Positions 24,306-43,853 of a stretch of DNA of 64,000 nt are shown here, piece by piece. The translations under genes and the position numbers were made by a program. The stretch spans positions 3,989 through 67,988 of the forward strand of contig JBDRBG010000116.1 of NCBI GenBank assembly GCA_043823005.1, given 5' to 3'. The notes beneath the pieces were generated by a model that saw only the letters and a list, made by a program, of their open reading frames with translations, had not been told where the DNA came from and did not search any database. The DNA is from Candidatus Omnitrophota bacterium (GTDB taxonomy: Bacteria; Omnitrophota; Gorgyraeia; Tantalellales; Tantalellaceae). Every line of letters starts with the position of its first letter. The first letter of the stretch is position 1.

Positions 24306-24567
24306 TCTTCAGCCTTCAACCTTGAACCTTGAACGGCTCCGAAGGAGCCTTAACGCGACCGCGGCAATCTCCCTCAAAAAATGTACAAACCTGTTGTATT
24401 CGATATCCCTTTCTTATAATATATTACTATTTCTCTTCCAATTTTGACTTTTAATTTTTCCTCATGTATTATTAATAATACATTAAGGTTATAACTGTCC
24501 CATACAGTTAATGTTTTATTTAATTTTGGGACAGAAAATTATATTTATAATATATAGGAGGTGTTTT

Positions 24568-25983
24568 GTGGGGTTCCTTCAATCTTTGTCAGTAGAGCAG
24601 AAAGGGCTTCGATATAAATTAATGATAGCATTTTCTTTGATGTCAATCATTCCTTTGCTGATTCTGACCTATTTTGTGACAAATTACATTTTTGAAGCCG
24701 AAGAAAACACATTTCAGCTGGCAGCCGTTGTAATGTTTACTTTATGGATAGCCTTTACAGGATATTTGTTGGCAAAAAACATTATAATGCCTGTTATTGG
24801 TCTTTCGATTGCAGCAAAAAAAATAGCTACAGGAAGTTATGATTCGAAGATTCTGATGGAGAGAGAAGATGAGCTGGGAGAGATAGCTTCAGCAGTCAAT
24901 TCCATGACCGGAAGAATGAGCGGTTATCTCGGAAAATTGCGTGAGTACAGTAAAGAAACAGCATCACTTAACGTGAGAATACACAGAAAAGTGCTTACGC
25001 TTACTAATTTAATGGGATTGGGAGATCTTATTAGCGAAGAAGCGGAGTTTGAGGAGATAGCTGATTATGCGGCGGAAAAAATAGCAGGTGAATTATACGG
25101 CGGGTTTTGCGCTATTTTCACCAAAGAAGGAGAAAACAAAACAAAATATGTTTTAAAATCTTTTACTAATAATTCAGGGAAAGAGTCGATTGTAAAATCT
25201 TTAAAAGAAGAACTTCCTTTGGCAGAAGATCTTTTCAAAAAAAATGAATATCTACTGGTTGACGCACATCCGTTGCGGAAGAGATGGCAAAAAGAACTGC
25301 GGGAAAAACTGGGTCATATAAATGCGGTAATTTTTTCTATGAAACTTAACGCGACTGTAGTAGGAGTCATACTTTTCGGAAATTTCGGGAGAGAATTTAG
25401 TTTTAGCGCCGAGGATATAGAAGTACTAAGAGCCTTTGAAAAAGAGTTAATCCTGGGATATCAGAGCGCGCAAGTCCGGAAAAGGGTAAAAAAGCTGGAA
25501 GTTGTGGATAATCTTACCGGATTGTATACATTTTCCTATTTGCAGGATCGTTTGGATGATGAGATCAAGAGATCCGTTTATTATCAGCGGCCGTGTTCGC
25601 TTATATTGATAGATGTAGATGATTTTGAGAAATATACGGGTTCTTACGGTTCGAAAAAAGCCGAGCAGGTCTTAATAATGGTTGCGAAGCTTTTAAGCGG
25701 TGAAATGCTTCCTGTCGGAAAAGTGGCTCGTTCCGGACGCGATGAGTTTGGAATTCTTTTGCCGGAGATGAACAAAAGAGAGGCTCTTTCCACGGGAGAG
25801 GATATTCGAAAAAAGATCGAAAAAATGGAGCTATCAATGGCTCTGGAAGACAGAATTACGGTGAGTATAGGTATAGGAGAAAATCCTATAGACGGAGCAA
25901 ATGCTAAAGATATTATAGCAAAGGCGCGGCTTAATATAAAGAAAGCAAAGACGCAGGGAAAAAACACAATTGTCGGAGAGTAA
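24568..25983 (+). CDS. Membrane HAMP-GGDEF-domain protein with degenerate motif (GRDEF)
   Basis: Two TM helices, a HAMP-like segment and a C-terminal GGDEF-fold domain in which the motif reads RSGRDEF. The GTG at ~24568 lies 6 nt after AGGAGG; the ORF-track ATG at 24511 has no SD. Confidence 0.7.
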   Translation: MGFLQSLSVEQKGLRYKLMIAFSLMSIIPLLILTYFVTNYIFEAEENTFQLAAVVMFTLWIAFTGYLLAKNIIMPVIGLSIAAKKIATGSYDSKILMEREDELGEIASAVNSMTGRMSGYLGKLREYSKETASLNVRIHRKVLTLTNLMGLGDLISEEAEFEEIADYAAEKIAGELYGGFCAIFTKEGENKTKYVLKSFTNNSGKESIVKSLKEELPLAEDLFKKNEYLLVDAHPLRKRWQKELREKLGHINAVIFSMKLNATVVGVILFGNFGREFSFSAEDIEVLRAFEKELILGYQSAQVRKRVKKLEVVDNLTGLYTFSYLQDRLDDEIKRSVYYQRPCSLILIDVDDFEKYTGSYGSKKAEQVLIMVAKLLSGEMLPVGKVARSGRDEFGILLPEMNKREALSTGEDIRKKIEKMELSMALEDRITVSIGIGENPIDGANAKDIIAKARLNIKKAKTQGKNTIVGE

Positions 25984-26215: not shown

Positions 26216-26273
26216 TGACAAATAAGTTATTTTGAAAAAGTCTAATTTTTTAACAAAAAAGGAGAAAAGAAAA

Positions 26274-27338
26274 GTGAGAGAGGATATAAGAAAAATTTTA
26301 GCCGCTATGCCGGAAAGAAAAGCTTCAGATCTTCATATTGGAGTGAATCGTCCCATGCATTATCGTATAGACGAAGATCTTGTGGGTATAGACAGTAACG
26401 TATTATCGGCAAAAGAAGTAAAAGAGATAGTTTACAGTCTTCTTTCTCCTGAACAAATAAAAAGGTTTGAAGAAAACAAAGAGCTTGATTTCTCTTTGGA
26501 GATAGAGAATGTAGGCAGGTACAGGTGTAACGCTTTTTTTCAGCGTCAGCATATAGGATGTGCCGTAAGATTAATACCTATTCACATATGGAGTATTGCT
26601 GATTGCGGATTGCCCGAAGATATTGTCCTTCAGTTTTGCAAAACCTTAAAAGGGTTGATCCTGGTTACCGGCGCTACGGGCAGCGGAAAATCCACTACAC
26701 TTGCCGCTATGCTGGACGAGATAAACCGTACTCGTAAATGCCATATAGTAACAGTTGAAGATCCAATCGAGTTTCTTCATAAAAATAAAAACGCTATTAT
26801 TGAGCAAAGACAGATTCTGGAAGATACTCATTCGTTTTCAAGCGCTTTACGTCATGTTCTGCGTCAGGATCCTGATGTTATTCTTATAGGAGAACTCAGG
26901 GATCTTGATACGATTCAGCAGGCGATGATAATCGCGGATACCGGCCATCTTGTTTTAGCGACTCTGCATACTTCTGACAGCACGCAGACAATAAACAGAA
27001 TAGTTGACGTGTTTCCGGCTCATCAGCAGAGGCAGATAAGGGTTCAGTTATCATTTGTTCTTACGGGTATTTTGGCACAGCAATTGATCCCTCGTAAAAA
27101 TGATAAAGGAAGAGTTCTGGCTTCAGAAATTCTGATAGCTAATTCAGCTATTAGAAGCATGATAAGGGATGCAAAGGAACCGCAGATATATTCTACGATT
27201 CAGACATCTCAAAAGATAGGCATGAAAACCATGAATCAGGCGCTTGTTGAACTGTATTCTTCAGGAGTCATAACTTATGAGGACGCGGTTTTCCGATCTT
27301 CCAATCCGGATGAACTTATTAAACTTATTGAAGGTTGA
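26274..27338 (+). CDS. pilT: Type IV pilus retraction ATPase PilT
   Basis: ASDLHI N-terminus, Walker A GATGSGKSTT, Walker B DPDVILIGELRD, His box ATLHTSDS, ~355 aa. GTG start with GGAG SD (the ORF-track start at 26232 is a TTG with no SD). Confidence 0.85.
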   Translation: MREDIRKILAAMPERKASDLHIGVNRPMHYRIDEDLVGIDSNVLSAKEVKEIVYSLLSPEQIKRFEENKELDFSLEIENVGRYRCNAFFQRQHIGCAVRLIPIHIWSIADCGLPEDIVLQFCKTLKGLILVTGATGSGKSTTLAAMLDEINRTRKCHIVTVEDPIEFLHKNKNAIIEQRQILEDTHSFSSALRHVLRQDPDVILIGELRDLDTIQQAMIIADTGHLVLATLHTSDSTQTINRIVDVFPAHQQRQIRVQLSFVLTGILAQQLIPRKNDKGRVLASEILIANSAIRSMIRDAKEPQIYSTIQTSQKIGMKTMNQALVELYSSGVITYEDAVFRSSNPDELIKLIEG

Positions 27339-27376: not shown

Positions 27377-27820
27377 GTGACAGAGGGACGTAAAGGGAAA
27401 AAACTTGGTGAAATTCTGATAAAATGTGATGTTATTTCAGCCGATCAACTGGAAAAAGCTCTTAATTTTCAACGCCGGGAAGGCGGCCTTTTGGGAGAGA
27501 TTCTGGTTAAGCTGGGATATTTGCATGAACAGGATATTATTAAAGCCTTAACAGCGCAATACGGTTTTCCGTATATTCCGCTGGAAAGTTATAATCTTAA
27601 AAAAGAAACGGCAAAACTGATTCCGGAAAATGTGGCGAGACAATATTGTATTGTGCCTCTGGATAGTATAGGCGATATTTTGACCATTGCGATGTCAAAT
27701 CCTCTTAACGATAAAGCTATTGAAGATGTAGAGATGATAACAAAAAAGAAAGTTAAAGTTTTTATAAGCACACTTACGTCTATGCATAATGCGCTGGATA
27801 GAATATATGCAAGAGAGTAG
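27377..27820 (+). CDS. Standalone T2SSE_N/MshEN-like domain protein (candidate c-di-GMP receptor)
   Basis: 147 aa with two tandem 24-aa motifs, KLGEILIKCDVISADQLEKALNFQ and LLGEILVKLGYLHEQDIIKALTAQ, separated by 5 residues. This matches the MshEN consensus RLGxxL(V/I)xxG(I/F)(L/V)xxxxLxxxLxxQ. Confidence 0.65.
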   Translation: MTEGRKGKKLGEILIKCDVISADQLEKALNFQRREGGLLGEILVKLGYLHEQDIIKALTAQYGFPYIPLESYNLKKETAKLIPENVARQYCIVPLDSIGDILTIAMSNPLNDKAIEDVEMITKKKVKVFISTLTSMHNALDRIYARE

Positions 27821-27847
27821 AAATATTAAGCGGGTTCAATCTGTACT

Positions 27848-29578
27848 ATGGCTATATCACTTTCAAAAAAAATATGTGACATTCTTATTAAGAAAAAAAT
27901 CGTCACAGAAGAAGCTTTGAATAAAGCAAGGGCGCAGTGCGCCGAGAAAGGCGGCAGTCTAAGCGATATTCTTGTTAAGATGAACGCGGTTCCTAAAGAG
28001 GAACTATTGACAGCTATAAGTGACGAGGCCGGGTTTCCTCCTGTTAATCTTTCCAATTTCAACATTGAAGATGATGTTATCGCTCTTATTCCTAAAAAGT
28101 TCGCGGTTTCTTATAAAATAATTCCGGTATCACGCATGGGCACCCAGCTTACCGTGGCAATGGTCGATCCTCTTAATATATTCGCGATTGATGATCTTAA
28201 GCTTTTGACTCATCTGGAAATAAGTCCGGTCATTGCCTCTGAAGATGACATGGAAGAATCTTTGCGTAAGTATTATGAAAGATCCGCGCATGAAGAAATA
28301 AGTTCAATAGTCGAAGACATTGAAAGCGCTGAAATGGAAATGGTTCCCGAAGGCGAAGACATGTCCTCAACAGAACTTTTCAGGATAACACAGGAAACCC
28401 CGGTTGTGAAACTTGCCAATATGATACTGGGAAAAGCAGTCAAGGTCGGAGCGAGCGATATTTTAATAGAGCCAATGGAGGATGCCTCAAGAGTAAGGTA
28501 TAGGATAGACGGTACTTTGCGGGAGTTTTATTCTCCGCAGAAAAAATATCATCAGGCTATAATATCAAGAATTAAGGTCATGTCGAGTTTAGATATTGCT
28601 GAGCGGCGGTTACCTCAGGACGGACGGTTTTCTGTAAAGGTCGAAGACCGAAAAGTAGATTTTCGGATTTCTATTGTTCCGTCCAGTTTAGGCGAAAAAG
28701 CGGCTTTAAGGGTGCTTGACCAGCAACAGGCTACAATAGATATTGAGCGGCTGGGTTTTAATAAAAGAGACGTTAAAATAATAAAGGAGGCCGGAAGCTG
28801 TCCGCATGGCATGATTCTTATCTGCGGCCCTACCGGATGCGGAAAAACAACTACGCTTTATTCTCTTTTAAAAGATATCGATGATCCGACAAAAAATATT
28901 GTGACTGTTGAAGATCCGGTAGAATATGAACTTAAAGGGATAAACCAGGTAAGTATAAACGCGGAAATCGGGCTTACGTTTGCCGGTTGTTTAAGGTCCA
29001 TTTTGCGTCAGGATCCGGATGTTATAATGGTCGGAGAGATAAGGGATTTTGAGACGCTTGATGTCGCGATAAAATCAGCGTTAACCGGGCATGTTGTTTT
29101 AAGCACGCTTCACACAAACACTGCCGGCGGAGCGATTGTCCGGATGGTGAATATGGGAATAGAACCTTTTTTAATATCAGCTTCTGTCGAGCTAATTGCG
29201 GCTCAAAGATTATTACGGCTTTTGTGTCCGGAATGTAAAGAACCTTATAAGCCTTCGCGTCAGACAGCGGAAAAATACGGTCTCTTGAAAAATGAAGAAA
29301 TAATAAACATTTATAAACCTGTCGGATGTGATAGATGTATGAATAGCGGATATAAGGGCAGGGTAGGAATAATCGAGAGTCTGCGTCTTACTCCGGCGAT
29401 TAAGGATTTAATATTCAGAGGCGCAAGAGAATTTGAAATAGAACAAAAAGCCAGAGAAGAAGGTATGACCATGTTAAGGGAAAACGGGATAGAACATGTT
29501 ATCGCGGGAGAAGCATCACTGGAAGATGTGCTTTGTAGTACGGTTGAAAGTAAAAAAACAGGATCAGCAGAAAAATGA
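27848..29578 (+). CDS. pilB: Type IV pilus assembly ATPase PilB/GspE, paralog 1
   Basis: N-terminal T2SSE_N, Walker A GPTGCGKTTT, Asp box, Walker B DPDVIMVGEIRD, His box LSTLHTN, tetra-Cys Zn motif CPEC...CDRC. Confidence 0.85.
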   Translation: MAISLSKKICDILIKKKIVTEEALNKARAQCAEKGGSLSDILVKMNAVPKEELLTAISDEAGFPPVNLSNFNIEDDVIALIPKKFAVSYKIIPVSRMGTQLTVAMVDPLNIFAIDDLKLLTHLEISPVIASEDDMEESLRKYYERSAHEEISSIVEDIESAEMEMVPEGEDMSSTELFRITQETPVVKLANMILGKAVKVGASDILIEPMEDASRVRYRIDGTLREFYSPQKKYHQAIISRIKVMSSLDIAERRLPQDGRFSVKVEDRKVDFRISIVPSSLGEKAALRVLDQQQATIDIERLGFNKRDVKIIKEAGSCPHGMILICGPTGCGKTTTLYSLLKDIDDPTKNIVTVEDPVEYELKGINQVSINAEIGLTFAGCLRSILRQDPDVIMVGEIRDFETLDVAIKSALTGHVVLSTLHTNTAGGAIVRMVNMGIEPFLISASVELIAAQRLLRLLCPECKEPYKPSRQTAEKYGLLKNEEIINIYKPVGCDRCMNSGYKGRVGIIESLRLTPAIKDLIFRGAREFEIEQKAREEGMTMLRENGIEHVIAGEASLEDVLCSTVESKKTGSAEK

Positions 29579-31284
29579 GAACCTTTTCCAAACAGAAAAT
29601 AGTAGAAGCTCTTATACAAAGCGGGTTTATATCAGAAAAAGAATTAGAGCCTATCTTAGCGGAAGCAATAAAGCAGAGAGAAGTTAGTCTGATAAAACTG
29701 CTTTCAGACAGTAATATTATGTCTGAAATAGATTTATTGACAGTTTTAAGTAAAGAAATGGATATTCCTCCGATCGATATTTTAAATGTAAGATTAAATC
29801 CTAAACTGATGGAAATCGTATCGGAAAGACTTATCAGGCGGCATTGTATTCTTCCGTTGTCAAAAATAGGAGACGAAATAACAATAGTTGCTGCTGATCC
29901 CAGCGATATATTTGCCATTGATGATGTAAGAACGGTTACAGGTTGTGATGTTGAGATTGTGCTGGCGGCAAGAAACGCTATTAATGACGCGATCAATGTG
30001 TTTTATTCTAAAGACGAAGAAGAACTTTCGACTATTATGGAAGAAGCCCGTGAATCAGGGGACGATGTAGAGGTAATGGGAGAAAAAGAGGGGATCGATA
30101 TAACAGGGATAGCGGAAGAGAGTAAAGCGGCTCCGATAGTTAAGATGGTTGATCTTATAATCGGTGAGGCTATAGAAAAAAAGGCAAGTGACATACATAT
30201 CGAACCGCAGGAAAAATCATTAAGGATAAGGTATCGTATAGACGGACAGCTTTATAACGCGTTTGATCTTCCTAAAAAAAATCAAAATGCTATACTCGCA
30301 AGGCTTAAGATTATGTCAAATCTTGATATTACAGAGACAAGGGTTCCGCAGGACGGCCGGTTTCGGATACGGCTGGGAGAAAAAGAAATAGATTTTAGGG
30401 TATCTTCACTGCCTCTTAATTATGGGAACAAGATGGTTTTACGAGCTCTGGATAAAGCTAATCTTTCTGTGGGGTTGGAAACCCTGGGTTTTTTGCCGGA
30501 ACCGCTTGCTGATTTCAAAGAGGCGCTTTCAAGGCCTTTTGGAATAATCCTGGTTACAGGCCCTACCGGAAGCGGAAAATCTACTACACTATATTCAATT
30601 CTTAATTCGATGAATGTTCCCGGAAGAAATATAGTGACTGTGGAGGATCCTGTTGAATATCAGGTCCAGGGTATAACGCAGATCGCGGCGCGTCCTGAAA
30701 TAGGTCTTGATTTTGCCAGCGGATTAAGAGCGATTTTAAGACAGAGCCCTGATACTATACTTGTAGGCGAGATAAGGGATTTTGAGACCGCTGATATAGC
30801 GATAAAAGCGTCGCTTACCGGTCAGATGGTACTTAGTACTCTTCATACGAATAACGCTGTGGGCGCGATAACAAGGCTCGTAAATATGGGTATAGAACCT
30901 TTTCTTGTAGCTTCCAGCCTTGTTATGGCATGCGCGCAAAGACTGTTAAGAAAGATATGTTCTAATTGTAAGGCGGAAGAAGACATCCCTGCAGATGTGT
31001 TGAAAAAAATAAGAAGCAAATATTCGGAAGCAGTCGGGGTTAATAAATTTTATCACGGAACGGGTTGTGAGCAGTGCCATAATACCGGGTATAAAGGAAG
31101 ATTAGGGACCCTGGAGACTCTTCTGATAGATGACGAGATAAAAGAAATGATAATAGCCCGCAAATCAGAAGAAGATATAAACGTTTATCTGAAAAAACAG
31201 GGAGCAATGACTCTTCGGGATAATGCTATGCGGAAATTTATAAGAGGATGGACAAGCCTGGAGGAAGTGTATCGGGTAACTTAA
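29575..31284 (+). CDS. Type IV pilus/T2SS assembly ATPase PilB/GspE, paralog 2
   Basis: Same architecture (GPTGSGKSTT, SPDTILVGEIRD, LSTLHTN, CSNC...CEQC). Its start codon overlaps the paralog-1 stop (ATGA). Confidence 0.85.
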   Translation: MRTFSKQKIVEALIQSGFISEKELEPILAEAIKQREVSLIKLLSDSNIMSEIDLLTVLSKEMDIPPIDILNVRLNPKLMEIVSERLIRRHCILPLSKIGDEITIVAADPSDIFAIDDVRTVTGCDVEIVLAARNAINDAINVFYSKDEEELSTIMEEARESGDDVEVMGEKEGIDITGIAEESKAAPIVKMVDLIIGEAIEKKASDIHIEPQEKSLRIRYRIDGQLYNAFDLPKKNQNAILARLKIMSNLDITETRVPQDGRFRIRLGEKEIDFRVSSLPLNYGNKMVLRALDKANLSVGLETLGFLPEPLADFKEALSRPFGIILVTGPTGSGKSTTLYSILNSMNVPGRNIVTVEDPVEYQVQGITQIAARPEIGLDFASGLRAILRQSPDTILVGEIRDFETADIAIKASLTGQMVLSTLHTNNAVGAITRLVNMGIEPFLVASSLVMACAQRLLRKICSNCKAEEDIPADVLKKIRSKYSEAVGVNKFYHGTGCEQCHNTGYKGRLGTLETLLIDDEIKEMIIARKSEEDINVYLKKQGAMTLRDNAMRKFIRGWTSLEEVYRVT

Positions 31285-31462: not shown

Positions 31463-32683
31463 ATGGGAAAATTTGTTTATACAGCAAAAGACAGTACAGG
31501 ACATACTCTTAAAGGCGAGCTTTTAGCGGCTGACAAGAAAAAAGCGCTTGATATTTTAAGAGAAAAAGGGCTTTTGGTCCTTAACCTTGAAGCGTTTAAG
31601 GAAAAATCAGCCATGTTTTCTTTTCTTAGCCTCACCTCAAAAAAAAAGATCGCAATGGAGGAACTTGTTATCTTTAGCCGGCAGATGGCGACAATGACAG
31701 GCGCGGGCATTACTATTGTGGATTCGCTTGATACACTGGCTGATCAAGTGGATAACCCTTCTTTACAGAAGATTCTTAAAGATATCAGAGATTCCGTAAA
31801 TACAGGAGCAAGCCTTTCTGAAGCCATGAGTAAATATACGGTAGTTTTTTCCGCGTATTTTGTTAATATGATCAAGGCCGGAGAATCCAGCGGTATGCTT
31901 GATGAAGTGCTTGAAAGAATATCTTCCTATATGGAAAAGACAAACGCTTTACAGAAAAAGATTAAAACAGCTATGGTCTATCCTTCGATTGTTTCATTAA
32001 TGGCTGTAGGAATAACGCTTGTTATGATTTTAAAAGTTATTCCTGTTTTTAAGGATATGTTCTCCGGGTTTGGCGCAGCGCTGCCTGCTCCGACTATGTT
32101 TTTAATAAATCTAAGTGACGCGATGAGGCATTATTTTGTTTTTTTTGTCGTCGGATTTGTTATATTCGGAGTGATTGTTAAGCGATATACCCGGACTGAA
32201 AAGGGCCAAACAGTTATTGATGGCTTGAAACTAAAGATGCCTGTTTTTGGGGAATTATTTAAAAGGGTCGCGATAAGTAAATTTACAAGGACATTAAGTA
32301 CCTTAATGAAAAGCGGTGTTCCCATTCTTACTGCTCTTGAAATAGTCGCGAAAACAGCGGGCAATCGGGTTGTCGAGAAGTCCATTAATACAGTAAGAGA
32401 CAGTGTGCGTGAAGGGGAAAGCATTTCAAGTCCTATGGCAAAAAGCGGTATTTTTCCGCCTCTTGTTACCCGTATGGTAGCAGTAGGTGAAAAAAGCGGC
32501 GAACTTGAAACCATGCTTATAAAAATAGCTGATTTTTATGATGAACAGGTTGATGCCATTGTAGACGGGCTTACAAGTCTTATTGAACCTCTTATTATAG
32601 CTTTTTTAGGTATTGTGATAGGAGGTATAGTTATTTCTATGTTTTTGCCGATATTTCAGATATCGAGTCTAGTCAATATGTAA
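31463..32683 (+). CDS. pilC: Type IV pilus platform protein PilC (GspF family)
   Basis: 406 aa with two GspF-type repeats and three TM helices. Confidence 0.85.
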   Translation: MGKFVYTAKDSTGHTLKGELLAADKKKALDILREKGLLVLNLEAFKEKSAMFSFLSLTSKKKIAMEELVIFSRQMATMTGAGITIVDSLDTLADQVDNPSLQKILKDIRDSVNTGASLSEAMSKYTVVFSAYFVNMIKAGESSGMLDEVLERISSYMEKTNALQKKIKTAMVYPSIVSLMAVGITLVMILKVIPVFKDMFSGFGAALPAPTMFLINLSDAMRHYFVFFVVGFVIFGVIVKRYTRTEKGQTVIDGLKLKMPVFGELFKRVAISKFTRTLSTLMKSGVPILTALEIVAKTAGNRVVEKSINTVRDSVREGESISSPMAKSGIFPPLVTRMVAVGEKSGELETMLIKIADFYDEQVDAIVDGLTSLIEPLIIAFLGIVIGGIVISMFLPIFQISSLVNM

Positions 32684-32802: not shown

Positions 32803-32862
32803 TAAAGTGGAAGGGTATAAGAAGATCTTTCCAAAAATATTACAAAAAAGGAGGTGAGAACA

Positions 32863-33225
32863 ATGAAGATACAAAAATTATTGGGTAAAAAGGGTTTCAC
32901 GCTTGTTGAAATAATGATAGTTGTGGCAATTATAGGTCTATTGGCTGCTATAGCCATTCCAAATTTCGTGAAGGCCCAGGCAACAGCCCAGGAAAAAGCA
33001 TGTATAGCGAATCTAAAGCAAATAGACGGAGCTAAAACTTTATATGCGCTGGATAACAACGTGGCTTCAGGAGGTGCCTGTGCAATGTCGAATCTGGTCA
33101 CAGACTATATAAAGTCAACTCCGCAATGTCCTGCCGGAGGCGCTGATACTGACTATACTCCGGGTGTGATTGGAACAACAGATCCGGTATGTACAATTAA
33201 CGGAACGGATCATGTATTGCCATAA
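32863..33225 (+). CDS. pilA: Type IV pilin (PilA-like)
   Basis: Leader MKIQKLLGKKG then FTLVEIMIVVAIIGLLAAIAIPNF (class III signal, Glu at +5). ~110-aa mature protein with Cys pairs. A sigma70-like promoter lies upstream and a strong terminator downstream. Confidence 0.85.
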   Translation: MKIQKLLGKKGFTLVEIMIVVAIIGLLAAIAIPNFVKAQATAQEKACIANLKQIDGAKTLYALDNNVASGGACAMSNLVTDYIKSTPQCPAGGADTDYTPGVIGTTDPVCTINGTDHVLP

Positions 33226-33738: not shown

Positions 33739-34074
33739 ATGAAGGGTAGGGGATTTACTCTGGTTGAGATCATGATCGTTACTGCTATTATTGGGATAGT
33801 AGCGGCAGTGGTTGTTTTTAACACGACAAAAGCGGCTGAAATAGCGCAATCCAAGACATGTATAGCAAATCTCAGACAGCTTTACGGTGCAAAGATGATG
33901 TGGGCAGCGGATAACGGCAAGATTTCGGGGGATGTCTGTATTATGTCAGACATAGTTTCTGATTATTTAAAATCTACGCCTTCTTGTCCTTCCGGAGGCA
34001 ATTATACTATCGGCAATGTGGGGACAACGCCTGCTTGCAGTTTAGAATCAGGAGATGATCATAAAGTCTTTTGA
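33739..34074 (+). CDS. Type IV pilin paralog
   Basis: MKGRG then FTLVEIMIVTAIIGIVAAVVVF. Shares the CIANL(K/R)Q...DN motif with the first pilin. Confidence 0.8.
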   Translation: MKGRGFTLVEIMIVTAIIGIVAAVVVFNTTKAAEIAQSKTCIANLRQLYGAKMMWAADNGKISGDVCIMSDIVSDYLKSTPSCPSGGNYTIGNVGTTPACSLESGDDHKVF

Positions 34075-34173
34075 TGCTGTCGGCTTTTTATATCCAATTA
34101 AAGAAAATGATATTAGATTTTTATGTTTCATTTGCATTCGGAGTTAACCGGGGAATGAAAGATCGGTTTGATT

Positions 34174-36039
34174 ATGTATAGACAAAAAACTGTTTTTTTG
34201 ATCATATTACTTTTGTTCGCGGCATCATTTGTATGTTATTCAAATATGCTTCATGCGGACTTTGTCTGGGATGATGAATTTTTAGTTGTGAGAAATTCGT
34301 TGATACGCGTTCCTTTGTGGTCATTTCAATTTTTTAAACAGGATATTTTAAATACAGGATTTACTCATTCTCTTTATTACCGCCCTGTACAGATCTTAAG
34401 TTACGCGATAGATTACCGTTTATGGGGACTTAACCCTTTTGGTTTTCATCTCTCAAATATAATACTTCATTTTATTAACGGAGTATTATTATTTTTTTTG
34501 GTTTTCAAACTTACGCGGAGTGAGTTTACAGCGTTTTTTTCTTCTCTTTTTTTTATAATCCATCCGATACAAACAGGCGCGGTTTCTTATGTTTCAGGCA
34601 GGGGTGAACTTCTGTTTTTTCTGTTTGGTTTTCTGTATATGCGGTTATATCTTTGTTTTAAAGATAAAAAGAATTATTTCCTTTTTGTTTTAAGTTTGTT
34701 TTTTCTCACGCTTTCTTTTCTTTGCAAAGAAGCCGCTATTATTTTTCCTGTACTACTTTTTTTGATCGGCAGACTTTTTTTAAAAGAAAAAAAATTAAGA
34801 GCTATGAAGTTTCAGGCGCCCGGATTTATTCTTGCGGGATTATATGTGATCGCTCGTTATTTTTTTGGACACGGACAATTGCGATTTTTAAAGGGTATTG
34901 ACATTAAAGAGGTTTTGTTTAAATATTTTATAATGGTTAAAGAACTTTGGGGCCTTATTCTTTATCCCGGAGATCTTCACATGAGAAGGGAGCTTATCTT
35001 TAACAATATTTATACGATAATTTTTTTCTGTTTTTTTCTTTTTAGCGGGATTGTTTTTTATAGACAAAAAAAAGAAAGAAACATATTGTTGTTTTCATTC
35101 ATTTTTTATCTTACAGGTCTTGTTCCATTCGTGTTTTCATTCGGAAGTTTTAATGTTTTTGCCGAACACTGGGCTTATTTGCCCGGATGCGGAATATTTT
35201 TATTTATAGCCTTTGAGATCTCAAAGATGCTTGAGAAGAATAGACGTTTCTATAAAATTTTTGCCGCTACGGGTATATTTTTTATAGTTTTTTTATCAGC
35301 ATTAAGCACAAGGGAATATAATGAATTCTGGAAAGACGACAGTTCTCTCAGTAATAGGATTTTAAGTTTTTCTGATCAGGACGATTCCGCGATGTATTAT
35401 AGGATATTGTCTGCGCGGGATAGCGGCAAAAAGGACGAGGTTTTCGAAAGGATGCGGGAATACGCGGAGAGTTATCCCGATGATCCGGCAGTCTGGTATA
35501 TAAAAGGAAGAAATACTCTTGCAATGGGAGATGTCGATGCCGCGGAAAAAGATTTTGAAAAAGTTTTTAATATAGCGCCGGGATATGTTGAAGGCTATAT
35601 GGGGCTTGCTTTGATCGAGTTTGCGCGAGGCCGTAACAGTGAAGGTATCTGTTATCTTGAAAAGCTGGTAAGCGTAAATTCAAAAAACAGTGAAGCGTTG
35701 CTTCGGTTAGGAACAGCTTATTATTCGGAAGGAAAAACAGAAGAAGCGTTTAAAGCTATGCGTAAAGCCGGTGAAATTAACGCGTATGATTATAATTATC
35801 TGGTAAACATGGGGTCTCTGCGCGCTAGAGAAGGAGAGCTTCAAGAAGCAATAAAATTGTTTTTACGGGCTATAAAGATATATCCGAATGTTCCCCTGGT
35901 TCATTATAATATGGGGGAAGTTTTTCGTTCTGTCGGAGAAAAAAAAGAAGCGAAAAAATGGTTTCAAAAAACAATAATGATAGACGCGAATTTTTCTCCG
36001 GCAATACAGGCGCTTCAGGAAATGGCAAACAGTGAATAG
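34174..36039 (+). CDS. TMTC-like GT-C-fold membrane protein with C-terminal TPR repeats (candidate protein O-glycosyltransferase)
   Basis: About 11 TM helices, an N-terminal loop motif ADFVWDDEF (resembles the DFVxDD loop of TMTC/PMT-family GT-C enzymes) and at least 5 C-terminal TPR repeats. Confidence 0.55.
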   Translation: MYRQKTVFLIILLLFAASFVCYSNMLHADFVWDDEFLVVRNSLIRVPLWSFQFFKQDILNTGFTHSLYYRPVQILSYAIDYRLWGLNPFGFHLSNIILHFINGVLLFFLVFKLTRSEFTAFFSSLFFIIHPIQTGAVSYVSGRGELLFFLFGFLYMRLYLCFKDKKNYFLFVLSLFFLTLSFLCKEAAIIFPVLLFLIGRLFLKEKKLRAMKFQAPGFILAGLYVIARYFFGHGQLRFLKGIDIKEVLFKYFIMVKELWGLILYPGDLHMRRELIFNNIYTIIFFCFFLFSGIVFYRQKKERNILLFSFIFYLTGLVPFVFSFGSFNVFAEHWAYLPGCGIFLFIAFEISKMLEKNRRFYKIFAATGIFFIVFLSALSTREYNEFWKDDSSLSNRILSFSDQDDSAMYYRILSARDSGKKDEVFERMREYAESYPDDPAVWYIKGRNTLAMGDVDAAEKDFEKVFNIAPGYVEGYMGLALIEFARGRNSEGICYLEKLVSVNSKNSEALLRLGTAYYSEGKTEEAFKAMRKAGEINAYDYNYLVNMGSLRAREGELQEAIKLFLRAIKIYPNVPLVHYNMGEVFRSVGEKKEAKKWFQKTIMIDANFSPAIQALQEMANSE

Positions 36040-36440: not shown

Positions 36441-37460
36441 ATGATAAAATTGGGCAATATAAAACAATCTTCAGTAGGGCTTGATATCGGCACTAATTCA
36501 GTCAAAATTGCTTGTTTGCGGAAAAATGCTGATAAAAATACGCTTCTTGGGTATAACATAAAAAATCTGCCGTTTGATATTAAACCTGATCATGTAATAG
36601 ATGTTGTGAGGGAGGCTTTTGAGGAAATCGAGCTTAGTCCCGATGAGATAAATCTGTCCATATCAGGGCCGGAAGTTATTGTGAGATTTGTTGATCTTCC
36701 TAAAATGACCAAAGAACAGCTTGAAAGCGCGCTTGTGTTTGAAGCTGAAAAATATATTCCTTTTAATATTAACGACGTTATGCTTGATTTTATCATTCTC
36801 GGGGATTCAAGTGAACCCGGACAAATGAAAGTGCTTTTGGCGGCCGCGAAAAAGGAAGCTATAAATTCACGTTTATCAATGGCGGAAAATCTGGGGATGG
36901 CAGTAAATCTTCTTGATATTAACTCTTTCGCGATGTTTAACGCGTTTCTCGCGTCTAATCAGGAGGATTTAGATGGAAAAGGTATAGCGTTTTTTGACCT
37001 GGGATATTCAGATACAAATGTTATTATATCAACGGGTAAAGTCCCGAGTTTTATGAGGTTAATACAAATAGGGACTAAGGATATAATTTCCGCGATGAGC
37101 CGTAATTTGTCTATTCCGATTGATCAGGTTGATGCTTTGATGATGGGGAAAGATGAAGCTTCAAATAATTCAATAAGGGAAGGGGCTGGTTCTATTTTAG
37201 ATGATCTGGTAAATGAGATGCAGCTTTCTTTTGGATATTTTGAGAATAGAAGTAATATCGCGGTTAAAGAGGTTTTTTGTTCCGGAGGAATGGTACATCA
37301 ACAGGTTGCGCTGGATTATTTGAGTCAGAAATTAGAGGTAACACTTAAAAAGTGGAACCCGTTGGAAGGACTTATATTGTCGGAAAGTCTTTCCGGCGAA
37401 GATCTGGAAAAAGCTGCTTCACAACTTGCTGTAGCTGTGGGGTTAGCTCTAAGGGATTGA
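36441..37460 (+). CDS. pilM: Type IV pilus assembly protein PilM (actin-like)
   Basis: GLDIGTNSVKIA N-terminus and PilM architecture. Followed by pilN/O/P/Q. Confidence 0.85.
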   Translation: MIKLGNIKQSSVGLDIGTNSVKIACLRKNADKNTLLGYNIKNLPFDIKPDHVIDVVREAFEEIELSPDEINLSISGPEVIVRFVDLPKMTKEQLESALVFEAEKYIPFNINDVMLDFIILGDSSEPGQMKVLLAAAKKEAINSRLSMAENLGMAVNLLDINSFAMFNAFLASNQEDLDGKGIAFFDLGYSDTNVIISTGKVPSFMRLIQIGTKDIISAMSRNLSIPIDQVDALMMGKDEASNNSIREGAGSILDDLVNEMQLSFGYFENRSNIAVKEVFCSGGMVHQQVALDYLSQKLEVTLKKWNPLEGLILSESLSGEDLEKAASQLAVAVGLALRD

Positions 37461-37486
37461 TATTTTTTATAATTTTATAATATTCA

Positions 37487-38119
37487 ATGATAGAACTTAA
37501 TCTGCTTCCAAAAGAGTTTCGCAAAAAAAAACAGGCTTCCAATCAGTTGACTGAGATACCTGTAGTTGTCATATCCGCGTGTATAGTAGTTTTTGTTGTG
37601 TTGATTCATATTCTATTGGTTTTTTTTGACGCAAGGAACAATGCTGTCTTGAAAAAACTGGAGCAAAGATGGGATCAAATACAGCCTCAAAGTAAAGAAA
37701 CAGAAGAACTATCCAGAAATATTGTCTCTATTGAAAAAAAAGTTATTGCTATTCGGGAAATAGCAAAACCCGGTTTTAGTTGGGCGCGGGTATTAAGCGG
37801 GTTGAATGAGAGTATAATTGACGATATATGGCTTTCAGGATTTGATCTTAGTTTTTCAAGAGGAAAAGGATCAGCTCAGGACCTGCCAAGCGCAGTTAAT
37901 CTTACAGGGTACGCGTTTAGTGAAACGGAAAAAGCTACTTCCCGTGTCGCGAAATTTATTGCCAGTTTGAAAAACAATGAAGATTTTTCGCGATATTTTG
38001 AAGATATTGAAGTGCAGAACATAAGGAATACTGAATTTGCTAAGACCGAGGTTATGATATTCAGGTTGATTTGCCGGGTTAAATCAATAGATATTGTTTC
38101 GATTAAAGGTGAAAAATAA
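37487..38119 (+). CDS. pilN: Type IV pilus assembly protein PilN
   Basis: MIELNLLPKEF (INLLP motif), single TM, coiled coil. Confidence 0.75.
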   Translation: MIELNLLPKEFRKKKQASNQLTEIPVVVISACIVVFVVLIHILLVFFDARNNAVLKKLEQRWDQIQPQSKETEELSRNIVSIEKKVIAIREIAKPGFSWARVLSGLNESIIDDIWLSGFDLSFSRGKGSAQDLPSAVNLTGYAFSETEKATSRVAKFIASLKNNEDFSRYFEDIEVQNIRNTEFAKTEVMIFRLICRVKSIDIVSIKGEK

Positions 38120-38128
38120 AAAGTAAAA

Positions 38129-38719
38129 ATGATAGATATTAAAAATATAACTGTTGAACAGATTAAAGAGTTTTTAAAAGACGAGCAATACCGGAAATAT
38201 ATCATTTCCGGCGGAGTTGTACTTTTTTCCGTGGCTTATTTGGTCTTGCTGGTTGTTCCAAGGTTTTTAAATCTCGGAGACCTGGCTTCTCAAATAAAGG
38301 ATACACGCAATAAGGTTGAAATGCTTGAAACCAGAATAAACCGCAGCGATAAGATGAAGATAAAATTAGCTGAACTTGAGAAAGAACTTACAGATTCTTC
38401 CGAAGGATTATCCGAAGACACCGAGATTCCCGTATTTTTGGAGGAATTATCTTCTGTTGCCGAAATTGCCGGGGTAACAATTTTAAGTATTACGCCTCAG
38501 GAATCCAGAGCTGTTGATAAAAATAACGATATTTTTTACAGTGAAAGCTCGATAATTATAACGGCCAAAAGCGGATATCATCAGCTTCGGCATTTTGTAA
38601 GTAACATAGAAATAGCAAAAAGGTTTATTTCTATCGGAGATCTAAAGATACAATACAATGATAGAACTCCCAGAAAGCATGACATAAAAATGGTATTAAA
38701 AACTTATGTTTCAGAATAA
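38129..38719 (+). CDS. pilO: Type IV pilus assembly protein PilO
   Basis: Single TM plus coiled coil plus C-terminal ferredoxin-like region. Position between pilN and pilP. Confidence 0.65.
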   Translation: MIDIKNITVEQIKEFLKDEQYRKYIISGGVVLFSVAYLVLLVVPRFLNLGDLASQIKDTRNKVEMLETRINRSDKMKIKLAELEKELTDSSEGLSEDTEIPVFLEELSSVAEIAGVTILSITPQESRAVDKNNDIFYSESSIIITAKSGYHQLRHFVSNIEIAKRFISIGDLKIQYNDRTPRKHDIKMVLKTYVSE

Positions 38720-39101
38720 GGCAAATAAAAAGAAAAGAGACTGTTGTTTGTTTCCGCAGACAGCTGTAATATTAATTTTGTTGTTATTGTCAGCAAAGTT
38801 AGTCTGCGCGGAGGGAGATCAGCCTGTAGAGAAGAGAGATCCTTTTGTTCCGCTTGTTGGTGTAGCTCCGGAAAAAAGTCATGAAGAAACAGTAAGTGGT
38901 GAGGGAATTTTTATTTTGCCCGAAGAGATGAAGCTGCAGGGAATTGTGACCGGCGTTAACGGAGAATTCAACGCTTTTATCAACGGAGAGATAGTTAAAA
39001 AAGGCGATAAATTGGGAAATATTCTGATTGAGGATATTGCTAAAAATACAGTTGTTGTGAATGTTAATGATAAAAGGTATATTTTAAAATTGTATGAATG
39101 A
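38706..39101 (+). CDS. pilP: Type IV pilus assembly protein PilP
   Basis: Signal peptide then an RDPFVP motif characteristic of PilP. Immediately upstream of the secretin. Confidence 0.65.
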   Translation: MFQNKANKKKRDCCLFPQTAVILILLLLSAKLVCAEGDQPVEKRDPFVPLVGVAPEKSHEETVSGEGIFILPEEMKLQGIVTGVNGEFNAFINGEIVKKGDKLGNILIEDIAKNTVVVNVNDKRYILKLYE

Positions 39102-39120
39102 AAACAAGGAGATTATAAGA

Positions 39121-40863
39121 ATGAGAAATACTAGTAAAATACGGAAGCTGTTTATACTCGTTCTAATTATGGCATTTTTAAATTTATCTCTCAGCGTGTC
39201 AGCGTTTTGTCAGGTTGGAGGAGCTGTTTCTTCGCCTGAGATAAGCTCTTCAATAGTTACAGACCCTGTGGACGAGACTGTCGAGGAGATTATTCCTTCA
39301 AAATCCGGCAATGTCACTATAAATTTCAAAGATGTTGATATTCAGACAGTACTTCATTATTTGTCGGAAGTCAGCGGGGTAGATATTGTTCCTACTTATG
39401 ATGTAGTAGGTAATGTAACTGTTCGGTTGAGGGATAAACCCTGGGAAGTGGCTTTAGATGTTATTACAAGAAACTCGGATTATGCTTATACAAGAGAAGA
39501 TACTATTATCAGGGTAATGCCAAAGGCTAAGCTTAATACAGAAGAGCCTGTAACAGCGGTTATTCCTTTAAATTATATTATCCAGGATACAGAGGAGTCC
39601 AACCAGAACGTGGCAAAACTTCTGGAAGCAATTACTTCGGTGCTAAAAGTTGATGCAGGCGAAAGCGTGACTTATCTGCCGAGCGCTAACTCGATAGTCG
39701 TAGCCGCGGTACCGGCAAGGCTTAACGCGATAAAGGACATGGTGAAAAGGATAGATGTTAAAATACCTCAGGTCATGCTTGAGGCTAAAATAATAGAGGT
39801 GCGGTTAGATAAGAACGATCAGTTTGGGATTGACTGGAACGCGGTAGTAAGTATCTCCGGATCAAAGCGTCCGACAACACTGCCTTTTGAGCGGACGGGC
39901 GCGTTCGGGTTTTTACCCGGAGAACAGAGAAAGTATCTTCCGTATAGCACAAATATCGCCGGAACTACTATTTCGGAAGAATCGGATTTTCCTTATGTTG
40001 ATTTTACCGCGGCAGTTGATCCGACGGCCGTAGCTACCACAGGCTCGGTTTTTAGTTACGGAACCCTGGATTTTAGCGCTTTTTCAGCGGTACTCAGATT
40101 TATTGATGAATGGGATGATACTAATATTTTGTCAAGCCCGCGAATAACAACATTAAACAATCAGCCCGCGGTTATCAAGGTGATAACGAATGTTTTTCTT
40201 CAAAAACAGCAGACAGCAACTGATACAGCTTCTGTTGTTACCGTTGAATTTGAAGATGAACCCAGAGAAGTAGGAGTTATTTTAGAAGTAACGCCTCATG
40301 TTAATGATAACGGCGAGATAACCGTTAATCTAAAACCGCAGGTTTCCACCAATCTTACTTTTTCGGAACTGGAAGTAAGCGGCGCTACGAATACAGTGGC
40401 AATGACATACAATTCAAGAGAAGCCGAGACGCAGGTAATGGTAAGAGACGGTGAAACCGTTTTTATCGGAGGGCTTATAACGGAGACAAACACAAAAGAA
40501 GATCATAAGTTTCCTATTCTCGGAGATATGACCAAAGGTTTGCCGTTTTTGGGCCCTTTGTTTAATTATGAGCAGGATAATGTCGATAAGACTGAAGTGG
40601 TGTTTTTTATTACGGTTCATCTTTTGAAAGATGGACCGCATTCAGTCGATGTTTCAAATACAGAAGACGAATACGCGAAGTATTTTGAAGAGGAAATAAA
40701 CGAAGCTGAAATTGAAGCAGATAAAGCTGCAGTAAGATCCGAAGAACGAAATAAAACTAAAACAAAAGTTATTGTAAGTAAAGACCAGGCAAAAGAAGGG
40801 TATAAAGCTTTTCTTGATTTCAGGAAAAAACAGGGAGTTAAAAAGACGAAAGATAGAAGATGA
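39121..40863 (+). CDS. pilQ: Type IV pilus secretin PilQ
   Basis: Signal peptide, STN/N0-like domain (VTINFKDVDIQTVLHYLSEV), C-terminal secretin motif FPILGDMTKGLPFLGPLF. ATG 39121 has AAGGAG 8 nt upstream. Confidence 0.85.
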   Translation: MRNTSKIRKLFILVLIMAFLNLSLSVSAFCQVGGAVSSPEISSSIVTDPVDETVEEIIPSKSGNVTINFKDVDIQTVLHYLSEVSGVDIVPTYDVVGNVTVRLRDKPWEVALDVITRNSDYAYTREDTIIRVMPKAKLNTEEPVTAVIPLNYIIQDTEESNQNVAKLLEAITSVLKVDAGESVTYLPSANSIVVAAVPARLNAIKDMVKRIDVKIPQVMLEAKIIEVRLDKNDQFGIDWNAVVSISGSKRPTTLPFERTGAFGFLPGEQRKYLPYSTNIAGTTISEESDFPYVDFTAAVDPTAVATTGSVFSYGTLDFSAFSAVLRFIDEWDDTNILSSPRITTLNNQPAVIKVITNVFLQKQQTATDTASVVTVEFEDEPREVGVILEVTPHVNDNGEITVNLKPQVSTNLTFSELEVSGATNTVAMTYNSREAETQVMVRDGETVFIGGLITETNTKEDHKFPILGDMTKGLPFLGPLFNYEQDNVDKTEVVFFITVHLLKDGPHSVDVSNTEDEYAKYFEEEINEAEIEADKAAVRSEERNKTKTKVIVSKDQAKEGYKAFLDFRKKQGVKKTKDRR

Positions 40864-41137: not shown

Positions 41138-41437
41138 ATGATAAGATACAACGCAATGTTTGAAAAAAAAGGTGATATAAGATATATTTCGCATCTTGAT
41201 CTAATGACAGTGTTACGCAGGGCTATTCGAAGATCCGGGCTTCCATTTGTGACTACAGCGGGGTTTACTCCCAGAGTTAAGATAAGTATTCCAATGGCAT
41301 TAAAACTAGGCAAAGAAAGTGTTGATGAACAGATGTCTTTTTGGCTGATGGAAAAGGTAGAGTTGGATAAGGCTGTTAAGGCAATAAATAATAATTTGCC
41401 TAAAGGAGTTAAAATATTAAAAGTGAATGGGAGTTAG
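41138..41437 (+). CDS. DUF2344 (radical SAM-linked, TIGR03936-like) protein, possibly 3'-truncated
   Basis: RYISHLDLMTVLRRAIRRSGLPFVTTAGFTPRVKISIPMAL... matches the family's N-terminal half. It is only 99 aa and the stop abuts a ~250 bp repeat element. Confidence 0.6.
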   Translation: MIRYNAMFEKKGDIRYISHLDLMTVLRRAIRRSGLPFVTTAGFTPRVKISIPMALKLGKESVDEQMSFWLMEKVELDKAVKAINNNLPKGVKILKVNGS

Positions 41438-41439
41438 TG

Positions 41440-41700
41440 AATAGTGTCATTTGTTCCGTCCTGAAAAAGGTAGGATGAGAGTTGCAAGGTATTTTGCTGG
41501 AAGGGCAAGCATTCCGTGCTCAAACAATTTGCCCTCACTTGGTTCGGGCAAAAACTGCGCTCAGAACGCTCGCCCTTCCAGCAAAATAGCGGTTGGTGAA
41601 TAGGAAAAGGGGAAAATATCCCATCTGTCTTTGCGAGGAGGAACGAAGTGACGACGCGGCAATCTCGGATAAAAAAAGATAAAAAAAGTGACAACTGTTT
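41440..41700 (+). repeat. ~250-bp composite repeat R3, copy 1 (long conserved hairpin plus R1 unit plus TAGGACGATACAAG tail)
   Basis: Colinear with 59757-60010 at about 90% identity. Core hairpin CTGGAAGGGCAAGCATTCCGTGCTCAAACAATTTGCCCTCACTTGGTTCGGGCAAAAACTGCGCTCAGAACGCTCGCCCTTCCAG. Confidence 0.8.
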
Positions 41701-41732
41701 TAGGACGATACAAGCGGCAGAGTTGTTAGTAG

Positions 41733-41752
41733 GGGCGAAAAATTTTTCGCCC
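41733..41752 (+). promoter_or_regulatory. Perfect 20-nt palindrome/hairpin in the rne leader
   Basis: GGGCGAAAAATTTTTCGCCC. A second imperfect hairpin, GGGCAGACCGTATGTCCGCCC, lies ~20 nt downstream and 60-90 nt upstream of the rne ATG. Confidence 0.4.
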
Positions 41753-41820
41753 TGATAAAAATAAAAGATGTAAGGGCAGACCGTATGTCCGCCCGAAAAA
41801 GTATAAACTAAAGGAATGTA

Positions 41821-43373: not shown

Positions 43374-43853
43374 ATGAAAATTATTTTCAACAATAAAGGT
43401 ATAAGTTTTATCGAAGTCATGGTTTCTGCCGTCCTGGTAGCGTTAGGAACAACAGCTTTAATATCCGCGGTTATGCAGAGCTCTGTTTTTTCGAAAAACG
43501 TGGATACAGCTTATACGTCATCCTATATAGCGGAAAGGCGATTAGAAGTGCTTAGAAGTATTGATTTTGATCTTTTATCAGAAACCGCTGAAACAGAAGC
43601 GCGCGTAGCCGCTGACGGTACAATTGATTCAGCGGGTGAATATTTTAGAACAACGGGTATAGAAACAGGGTATGACAGTAATGTACATCTTGTTAGAGCA
43701 AAGATAACAGTAAAAAGGGTCAAAACAGGTATGGATGGCAGCCTTCTTAAAGGGGCTGGCGGCCAGCTAGAGCTTGCCGCTCAGCCGGTAATAATGGAAA
43801 CATTATTTTCAGATGTTGATCACAATGCGGGATCAGGAATAGTTGAAGAATAG
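43374..43853 (+). CDS. Minor pilin/pseudopilin (PilV-like), cassette 1
   Basis: MKIIFNNKG then ISFIEVMVSAVLVALGTTALI prepilin-type N-methylation site. 159 aa. GGAGGAGG SD. Starts 8 nt after rne. Confidence 0.75.
   Translation: MKIIFNNKGISFIEVMVSAVLVALGTTALISAVMQSSVFSKNVDTAYTSSYIAERRLEVLRSIDFDLLSETAETEARVAADGTIDSAGEYFRTTGIETGYDSNVHLVRAKITVKRVKTGMDGSLLKGAGGQLELAAQPVIMETLFSDVDHNAGSGIVEE

Follow-up and report, generated by a model that had tools for sequence, protein, structure and literature searches.

We analysed a 64-kb window of a contig from a Candidatus Omnitrophota bacterium (JBDRBG010000116.1; positions below are those of the window), which carries a gene cluster for a type IVa pilus (T4aP). 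The main result concerns one small gene of this cluster (27377..27820, + strand, GTG start). It encodes a free-standing MshEN (GSPII) protein of 147 aa, a predicted receptor for cyclic di-GMP (c-di-GMP), and is followed by the genes for two PilB-type extension ATPases, PilB1 (576 aa; 27848..29578, + strand) and PilB2 (569 aa; 29575..31284, + strand). Our favoured reading, which we hold with moderate confidence, is that the 147-aa protein is the trans-acting c-di-GMP receptor of a T4aP machine in which two motors share one PilC/PilMNOPQ platform. Its parts are not equally strong: judging from its sequence, the free MshEN protein very probably binds c-di-GMP; PilB1 and PilB2 quite likely serve the same machine; the output of the free domain is probably the pilus motor; and it is doubtful that PilB1 and PilB2 form a hetero-hexamer.

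The 147-aa protein, which is 100% identical to NCBI entry ABH869_07625 from a Candidatus Omnitrophota metagenome-assembled genome, consists of one complete MshEN domain, and the c-di-GMP motif in it is intact. Wang et al. (2016) defined this motif as RLGxx(L/V/I)(L/V/I)xxG(L/V/I)(L/V/I)xxxxLxxxLxxQ, occurring twice with a 5-residue spacer (PMC5013675). The first-pass annotation of this DNA had reported two such 24-aa motifs and their spacer, and both the coordinates and the strings were found to be correct: motif 1 comprises K9-Q32 (KLGEILIKCDVISADQLEKALNFQ, nt 27401-27472), the spacer R33-G37 (RREGG, nt 27473-27487), and motif 2 L38-Q61 (LLGEILVKLGYLHEQDIIKALTAQ, nt 27488-27559). The whole 53-residue motif, as read from the sequence, thus occupies 27401..27559 (+ strand). 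When the protein was scanned with NF053729, the NCBIfam model “cyclic di-GMP-binding domain, MshE-related” (53 positions, curated cut-off 38 bits), it scored 65.3 bits (E = 3e-18), with residues 9-61 aligned to model positions 1-53 of 53. The consensus residues K9-L10-G11, L25, L29 and Q32 of the first motif and L38-L39-G40, G47, I54, L58 and Q61 of the second are all present, and their numbering is that of V. cholerae MshE. The Leu triads (motif positions 2, 17 and 21) and the Gln at position 24 are therefore in place, I54 for L54 being a conservative change, and a basic patch (R5, K6, K8 and K9) is found at the N-terminus. Downstream of the motif lies a C-terminal alpha/beta subdomain of the T2SSE_N1-like type (27560..27817, + strand). 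The Pfam profile named “MshEN” (PF05157) aligns only this subdomain (residues 62-146) in the small protein, and likewise only the C-terminal subdomain in PilB1 and PilB2; a match to it was consequently dropped as a test for the c-di-GMP motif.

The predicted structure is consistent with this assignment. An AlphaFold2 model based on 25 homologs (mean predicted local distance difference test score, 87.9) has helices at residues 10-16, 22-35, 39-45 and 51-62, followed by the alpha/beta subdomain. In a Foldseek search of the PDB, the top match was 5HTL, V. cholerae MshEN with bound c-di-GMP (template modelling score 0.77-0.80, E = 2e-11), and the next ones were the GSPII-A/B structures of PilF and the N-terminal domain (N-domain) of Xanthomonas PilB complexed with PilZ. 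The solved structures most similar to the small protein in sequence are the N-domains of PilF, Geobacter PilB and Myxococcus PilB. The small protein is 40% identical to the Geobacter PilB N-domain (108 bits), as compared to 33% (90 bits) and 27% (65 bits) for the N-domains of its own neighbours PilB1 and PilB2, respectively.

The published determinants of binding can be traced in this protein. In MshEN, the Leu triads hold the guanines, the Gly-x backbone amides bind O6/N7, and the Gln residues bind ribose and phosphate; a G11L mutant does not bind, G40I binds 72-fold more weakly, and single Leu-to-Ala changes weaken binding more than 10-fold (PMC5013675). Changes of charged residues, including Arg9, shifted the affinity by at most about fivefold in an earlier study (cited in PMC5013675). 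The presence of K and L instead of R at position 1 of the two motifs had been feared to disqualify the small protein, yet it does not refute the prediction, as the same pair (K167/L196) is found in GSPII-B of Thermus PilF, the tightest binder known, whose dissociation constant (KD) for c-di-GMP is 6 nM, and restoring the Arg in that domain made binding 4- to 25-fold weaker (PMC11731258). The same authors widened the consensus to (R/K/L)LG and proposed a hydrophobic first residue as a predictor of very high affinity (PMC11731258). K9/L38 is therefore within the extended consensus.

Further evidence comes from conservation. The small-protein family has more than 2500 homologs of ~146-152 aa, with 60-75% identity among the best, and a scan using one genome per GTDB species yielded 286 relatives. 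Ortholog counts for the small protein refer to the best 80 of these 286; all of the 80 are Omnitrophota, some of them mislabelled “uncultured Planctomycetia”, and among them is Ca. Velamenicoccus archaeovorus LiM, whose genome is complete. G11, Q32, G40 and Q61 are invariant (80/80), positions 10, 25, 29, 38, 39, 54 and 58 are aliphatic in 78-80 of the 80, and the turn Gly of motif 2, G47, is kept in 76/80. Taken one by one, the Leu-triad and Gln positions are each conserved in 79-80 of the 80. In PilB1 and PilB2, the c-di-GMP motif of the N-domain is degenerate, as the first-pass annotation had also noticed, and more so in PilB2: PilB1 reaches 30.9 bits with NF053729, which is under the cut-off of 38, and PilB2 gives no match to it at E<=0.001. 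The difference between the intact free domain and the two degenerate fused ones is therefore not due to chance. The Gly at position 3 of motif 1 is found in 2/68 PilB1 and 0/60 PilB2 orthologs, and that of motif 2 in 10/68 and at most 15/60; the Gln at position 24 of motif 1 is found in 36/68 and 16/60, and that of motif 2 in 1/68 and at most 9/60. Mean pairwise identities, computed over the same 59 species, follow the same pattern. They are 0.61 and 0.63 for the N- and C-subdomains of the free domain, 0.46 and 0.52 for those of PilB1, and 0.32 and 0.44 for those of PilB2, while the ATPase cores of PilB1 and PilB2 have 0.65 and 0.67. The constraint on the free domain is equal to that on the catalytic cores, and it has relaxed in the fused four-helix bundles.

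It might be argued that the small protein serves PilB1/PilB2 as a structural adaptor or assembly factor that needs no ligand, with the motif kept for fold stability; for example, the N-terminal ring or PilM could receive from it an extra N1 domain in trans. Its C-subdomain is indeed conserved like its N-subdomain (0.63 vs 0.61). Also, N1 domains dock GspE-class ATPases on GspL/PilM-type partners (review, PMC11656802), and 2BH1 and 4PHT are among the fold matches of the small protein. However, the N-domains of PilB1 and PilB2 can be aligned with Geobacter PilB along their full length, the entire four-helix bundle included, although they mostly do not have G11, G40, Q32 and Q61, which indicates that these Gly and Gln residues are dispensable for the fold. 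As the Gly-x amides and the Gln are ligand contacts in MshEN (PMC5013675), selection for ligand binding best explains why they are invariant in the free protein, and we consider an adaptor that does not sense the ligand unlikely.

Both PilBs consist of N1 (GSPII), N2 and a C-terminal ATPase, with Pfam matches to MshEN and T2SSE. In PilB1, the N-domain lies at ~27848-28297 and the T2SSE core at 28391-29533; in PilB2, the N-domain lies at ~29575-30030 and the ATPase core at 30118-31275. The two proteins are 41% identical (BLASTP). For both, the best family is TIGR02538 (type-IV PilB), with 623.4 bits for PilB1 and 619.7 bits for PilB2, both below the equivalog cut-off of 675.65. The GspE model TIGR02533 gave 584 and 586 bits (cut-off 630), and the TfpB model NF053534 gave 418.6 and 439.2 bits, its cut-off of 850 not being reached. 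When compared to Geobacter PilB, they scored 524 and 521 bits, ahead of PilF and GspE, and their nearest solved homologs are the PilBs of Geobacter and Myxococcus. Judged by these comparisons, PilB1 and PilB2 are equally T4aP-PilB-like, and neither is a GspE or other ATPase of a type II secretion system.

Both ATPases had been described as intact (Walker A/B, Asp and His boxes, tetra-Cys), and this holds with one exception. Walker A, the Asp box including the catalytic Glu, Walker B, the gamma-phosphate His, the Arg fingers and the four Zn-binding Cys residues are invariant among 68 PilB1 and 60 PilB2 orthologs, except that Q replaces the first His of the His box in PilB2. The paralogs differ stably in three places, with GKT, RQDPD and TGH in PilB1 and GKS, RQSPD and TGQ in PilB2. 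The Gln in question, Q417 (nt 30823-30825), is Q in 56/60 PilB2 orthologs, and it is E in a second type of Omnitrophota locus described below; PilB-class ATPases have TGH. It corresponds to H413 of Geobacter PilB, which together with H420 sandwiches T411 at the packing-unit interface (PMC5424180). The His-to-Gln change thus lies at a site of inter-subunit communication or cooperativity, and it does not decide between the models.

The gene order around the small gene supports the association with the motor. For this analysis, ORFs (open reading frames) were called in the related loci and assigned by BLAST to the window proteins, and loci that were long enough were counted. The genes for PilB1 and PilB2 directly follow the small gene in 58/58 loci, and that for PilC follows PilB2 in 54/54. 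In the window, PilC (31463..32683, + strand; two Pfam T2SSF matches, and ~400-410 bits with NCBIfam PilC models) is the sole platform protein of the locus. The invariant unit is MshEN, PilB1, PilB2 and PilC, fixed across the phylum, and metagenomic contigs show the same gene order. The concern that the two ATPases might belong to different systems was looked into, and the findings speak against it, as both are PilB-like and always adjacent, and there is one PilC and one PilMNOPQ set. The first-pass annotation had also noted an ATGA overlap between the PilB genes and had taken it to imply coupled, equimolar expression. The overlap is real (the ATG of PilB2 is at 29575-29577 and the TGA of PilB1 at 29576-29578), but it was seen in only 14/58 loci, so the expression claim is not supported; what is conserved is a tight spacing, with a median gap of 5 nt and a gap of <=25 nt in 47/58 loci. 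As the ORF starts in the related loci are first-start calls, these gap and overlap statistics are approximate.

The genes upstream bear on another possibility, that the small protein is a c-di-GMP receptor with a different output, namely PilT, the degenerate GGDEF protein at the head of the locus, or a product encoded elsewhere. The gene for the PilT-family retraction ATPase (26232..27338, + strand; TIGR01420 pilT_fam, 448.6 bits vs a cut-off of 319) is immediately upstream of the small gene in 49/65 loci, and the GGDEF gene is within two genes upstream of it in 61/65. In the Velamenicoccus-type clade there is no PilT at that position, and the GGDEF gene abuts the small gene. Furthermore, the outputs to which MshEN domains are fused are many and unrelated (PMC5013675, Table S4). 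Nevertheless, the sole invariant neighbours are PilB1, PilB2 and PilC, and the decayed PilB sites fit a replacement of their function by the free domain. A second type of Omnitrophota locus (L087, 7489-13051), which was placed in the phylum by its AccA homologs, has the order REC-MshEN-PilB-PilB-PilC, in which a single-domain response regulator replaces GGDEF/PilT. It keeps the MshEN and the two PilBs with PilC but no adjoining GGDEF or pilT gene, and its free MshEN is intact while its fused PilB domains are degenerate, as in the window. An output other than the pilus motor is therefore rather improbable.

A third alternative sees the small ORF as a remnant or artefact, i.e., the split-off N-terminus of an ancestral PilB of the type (MshEN)2-T2SSE, which is either non-functional or joined to PilB1 by read-through. 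This architecture is known in Clostridia (PMC5013675, Table S4), and in the window 27 nt separate the small ORF from PilB1, which is in the same frame. However, two stop codons lie between them, both the gap and the frame vary by species (-4, -1, 0, 2, 3, 7 ... nt), and the protein is maintained at 145-155 aa with 50-70% identity over 80 species and a constraint at the level of the ATPase cores. The small gene is clearly functional now, although it is possible that it originated by splitting, and we regard a mere remnant as very improbable.

Variants of the free domain exist within the Omnitrophota. One contig (P0193) has another free MshEN gene, located between pilB2 and pilC. In three relatives of ~210-215 aa (P0002, P0132 and P0154), an extra 53-residue MshEN_N motif precedes the full MshEN, giving two predicted c-di-GMP sites. 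In the representative protein library, proteins of 1000-1350 aa (P0123, P0125 and others) have up to seven MshEN-like stretches, exceeding the (MshEN)4-T2SSE architecture that Wang et al. listed (PMC5013675). A search of representative proteins returned many homologs of 145-160 aa at 38-54% identity; all those that could be named were Omnitrophota, except for one partial GspE fragment from Wallbacteria. A profile built from divergent members retrieved the same family again, the sampling outside the Omnitrophota being inconclusive.

The source of the ligand was considered next to the receptor. The gene at the head of the module (24511..25983, + strand) encodes a membrane protein of HAMP-(GAF-like)-GGDEF architecture, with Pfam matches to GGDEF (103.9 bits) and HAMP; one of its orthologs has GAF matches. 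Its signature is GRDEF at residues 409-413 (nt 25735-25749), which departs from the GG(D/E)EF signature of diguanylate cyclases, and no RxxD I-site was found in it. Among 60 orthologs, positions 409-412 vary (E/D/G, D/G/E/R, D/G and E/V, respectively), while F413 is present in 56/60. As the signature positions vary, the GGDEF motif is degenerate, and the protein is therefore not a source of c-di-GMP. Given its membrane HAMP-GAF-like architecture, the protein could be either a scaffold or a sensor. Hence, the first-pass annotation was right in calling this protein degenerate and placing it at the head of the locus, a position that is syntenic, but its presence does not by itself point to c-di-GMP.

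Several observations weigh against our favoured reading. First, when the 64-kb window was searched with regular expressions, no credible active GGDEF, EAL or HD-GYP was seen. Second, the turn Gly of motif 1 (position 10) is replaced by D18, G being present at this position in 40/80 orthologs. Third, position 9 in the small-protein orthologs is Q in 44 of the 80, K in 32 and R in 3, and Q9 is outside both the published (R/K/L) and the relaxed [RKPN] sets. Finally, in C. perfringens PilB2, which has a fused MshEN, c-di-GMP binding left the in vitro ATPase rates unchanged (review, PMC11656802), so that even for a fused domain it is hard to say how the signal gets to the motor. As for the ligand, PilZ genes and GGDEF domains have been reported elsewhere in Omnitrophota genomes (bioRxiv 10.1101/2023.11.21.568195), and c-di-GMP is therefore plausibly present in the phylum.

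If the 147-aa protein is the trans-acting receptor of the pilus machine, we envisage that: the free MshEN would bind c-di-GMP through a site whose K9/L38 signature is that of the nanomolar binder PilF GSPII-B; the bound ligand would reorient its two subdomains, as c-di-GMP does in PilF GSPII-B (PMC11731258); the conserved T2SSE_N1-like C-subdomain would dock in trans on the PilB N-domains, PilM, PilC or the membrane GGDEF protein; and this docking would set whether, or which, extension motor engages. The N-terminus of a PilF-type motor with several GSPII domains would thereby be split over separate polypeptides, the signal being read by the free one only. More tentatively, the free MshEN might be a c-di-GMP-gated selector that determines whether PilB1, PilB2 or a PilB1/PilB2 hetero-hexamer works on the single PilC platform. 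Depending on ligand occupancy, it might enter the N1 ring or the PilM docking site, or else displace either of these, and each motor might then assemble one of the two pilin paralogs of the locus, or one might be a primer and the other a processive motor. If such a selector existed, it would represent the multi-GSPII PilF architecture in split-subunit form, and for the first time a paralog of the PilB N1 domain would be seen to serve as a second-messenger receptor in trans, but we consider it no better than possible.

Several known systems are close to this one. The small protein shares with V. cholerae MshEN (5HTL; PMC5013675) the two-subdomain fold, the 24+5+24 motif and the numbering of G11, L25, L29, Q32, G40, L58 and Q61. 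It differs from it in having K/L for R/R at position 1, D18 for the turn Gly, I54 for L54 and N108 for D108, and in not being fused to a T2SSE ATPase. N108 is at the site where MshE D108 and PilF D266 touch the guanine amino group, and PilF R268, which pre-orients D266, has no counterpart in the small protein (N108-P109-L110). With Thermus PilF (GSPII-B, 8PDK; PMC11731258), it shares the arginine-free K/L signature, which in PilF is tied to the 6 nM KD. In both cases several GSPII domains belong to one T4aP motor and only some of them bind, or are predicted to bind, the ligand (PilF GSPII-A does not). However, PilF has its three GSPII domains on one polypeptide with the ATPase, whereas here the motif-competent domain is encoded by a separate gene and the degenerate ones are on two ATPases.

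The FimX-PilZ-PilB system of Xanthomonas and Pseudomonas (PMC8389850) is similar in logic, in that PilB is not a c-di-GMP binder, a separate reader reaches the PilB N-domain, and a degenerate GGDEF is involved. There, however, the receptor is the degenerate EAL of FimX, bridged by PilZ, while the candidate receptor here is a paralog of the PilB N-domain, and Pfam scanning revealed neither an EAL nor a PilZ domain in the locus proteins covered. The pair PilB and TfpB of A. baylyi (review, PMC11656802) provides a precedent for two PilB-class motors on one pilus, and the make-up of the hexamer is open there too. In the Omnitrophota, by contrast, the PilB genes are adjacent, the pair is fixed over the phylum and the TfpB model is not reached; in addition, the known regulator in A. 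baylyi is the inhibitor CpiA, which is not an MshEN protein. PilT/PilU pairs are also adjacent catalytic ATPase paralogs on one machine, but they are retraction motors without N1 and thus offer an analogy only. MshEN-type modules that are likewise not fused to an ATPase are PA3740 of P. aeruginosa and cce_1044 of Cyanothece (PMC5013675, Table S4). Yet PA3740 has a highly diverged N1 subdomain and lies outside any pil operon, and cce_1044 is an (MshEN_N)2 without the N1 subdomain, while the Omnitrophota protein is a canonical full MshEN encoded between pilT and pilB.

What is already known is that MshEN is a widespread c-di-GMP receptor domain, that reception for PilB can be detached, that two extension motors can occur, and that motors with several GSPII domains can bind in part of them. 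What appears to be new is a twin-PilB locus, fixed across the phylum, in which a PilB-N1 paralog is the sole MshEN with a competent motif. T4aP are near-universal in the Omnitrophota, although the study reporting this (PMC10066038) mentions neither PilB nor c-di-GMP. In the literature searched, no description of a stand-alone MshEN beside pilB or tandem PilBs was found, which is no proof of absence. A 2024 review considers the role of N1 poorly understood and asks what the purpose of multiple PilB homologs is (PMC11656802). The Omnitrophota offer a natural dissection of this problem, as the predicted ligand-binding N1 is a separate 147-aa protein and the motors carry degenerate N1 domains, so that binding, docking and motor choice are amenable to study with separate, small and soluble components. 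Omnitrophota are ultra-small and probably host-dependent, and their T4aP are thought to mediate attachment or predation (PMC10066038); the module is likely central to their lifestyle. A stand-alone full MshEN syntenic with pilB also extends the list of c-di-GMP receptor architectures, and passing or failing NF053729 provides a simple sequence rule for picking receptors among the MshEN-annotated proteins of Omnitrophota genomes.

The remainder of the cluster was read from ORF calling and from Pfam and NCBIfam profile scans of the window proteins. The G+C content of the 64-kb window is 35-42%, its GC skew is uniformly positive, and every large ORF is on the + strand. The pilT-to-pilB2 genes are likely co-transcribed; a promoter and terminator scan found no intergenic terminator-like site from pilT to pilB2, and promoter-like sites were only modestly above shuffle expectation. 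Downstream of pilC are two short prepilin paralogs (32854-33225 and 33739-34074, + strand; N_methyl and prepilin-domain matches) of 123 and 111 aa, whose C-terminal halves are cysteine-rich; orthologous pilins on record have ComGC_C matches, and the pair is kept in three of the related loci (L001, L003 and L005). With two pilins beside two PilBs, it may be asked whether each pilin has a motor of its own. Between the pilins and pilM lies the gene for a polytopic membrane/TPR protein of 623 aa (34168-36039), with a polytopic membrane N-terminal region of ~400 aa that has no Pfam match and with C-terminal TPR repeats. It occurs in L001 and L003, is absent from L005, and could be a candidate pilin-modifying enzyme. 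It is followed by one copy of the PilM-PilN-PilO-PilP-like-PilQ (secretin) set (36441..40863, + strand; Pfam PilM_2, PilO and Secretin/STN/Secretin_N), in which PilN and PilP were assigned by position alone; the PilM-to-PilQ order recurs in L005 and L006.

Genes for MreD, Pbp2, RodA and a radical SAM protein precede the HAMP-GGDEF gene, and the upstream part of this mreD-pbp2-rodA-radical SAM order is kept across the phylum. Radical SAM and DUF2344 genes are usually neighbours or fused partners. In the window, the 17-kb pilus cluster, from the GGDEF gene to pilQ, is flanked by a Radical_SAM_N2-type gene (21852-23612) on one side and by DUF2344 and RNase E/G genes (41138-43365, downstream of pilQ) on the other, DUF2344 being truncated to 99 aa (profile positions 1-95 of 176). 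The pilus cluster thus appears to be inserted in a cell-shape/RNase G gene string. Further downstream of the RNase G gene are a PilV-like prepilin (43374-43853), with a weak match to TIGR02523 (20.6 bits vs a cut-off of 52.2), and a 766-aa ORF (44101-46401) with no Pfam match, which may be minor-pilin or tip components located apart from the main cluster.

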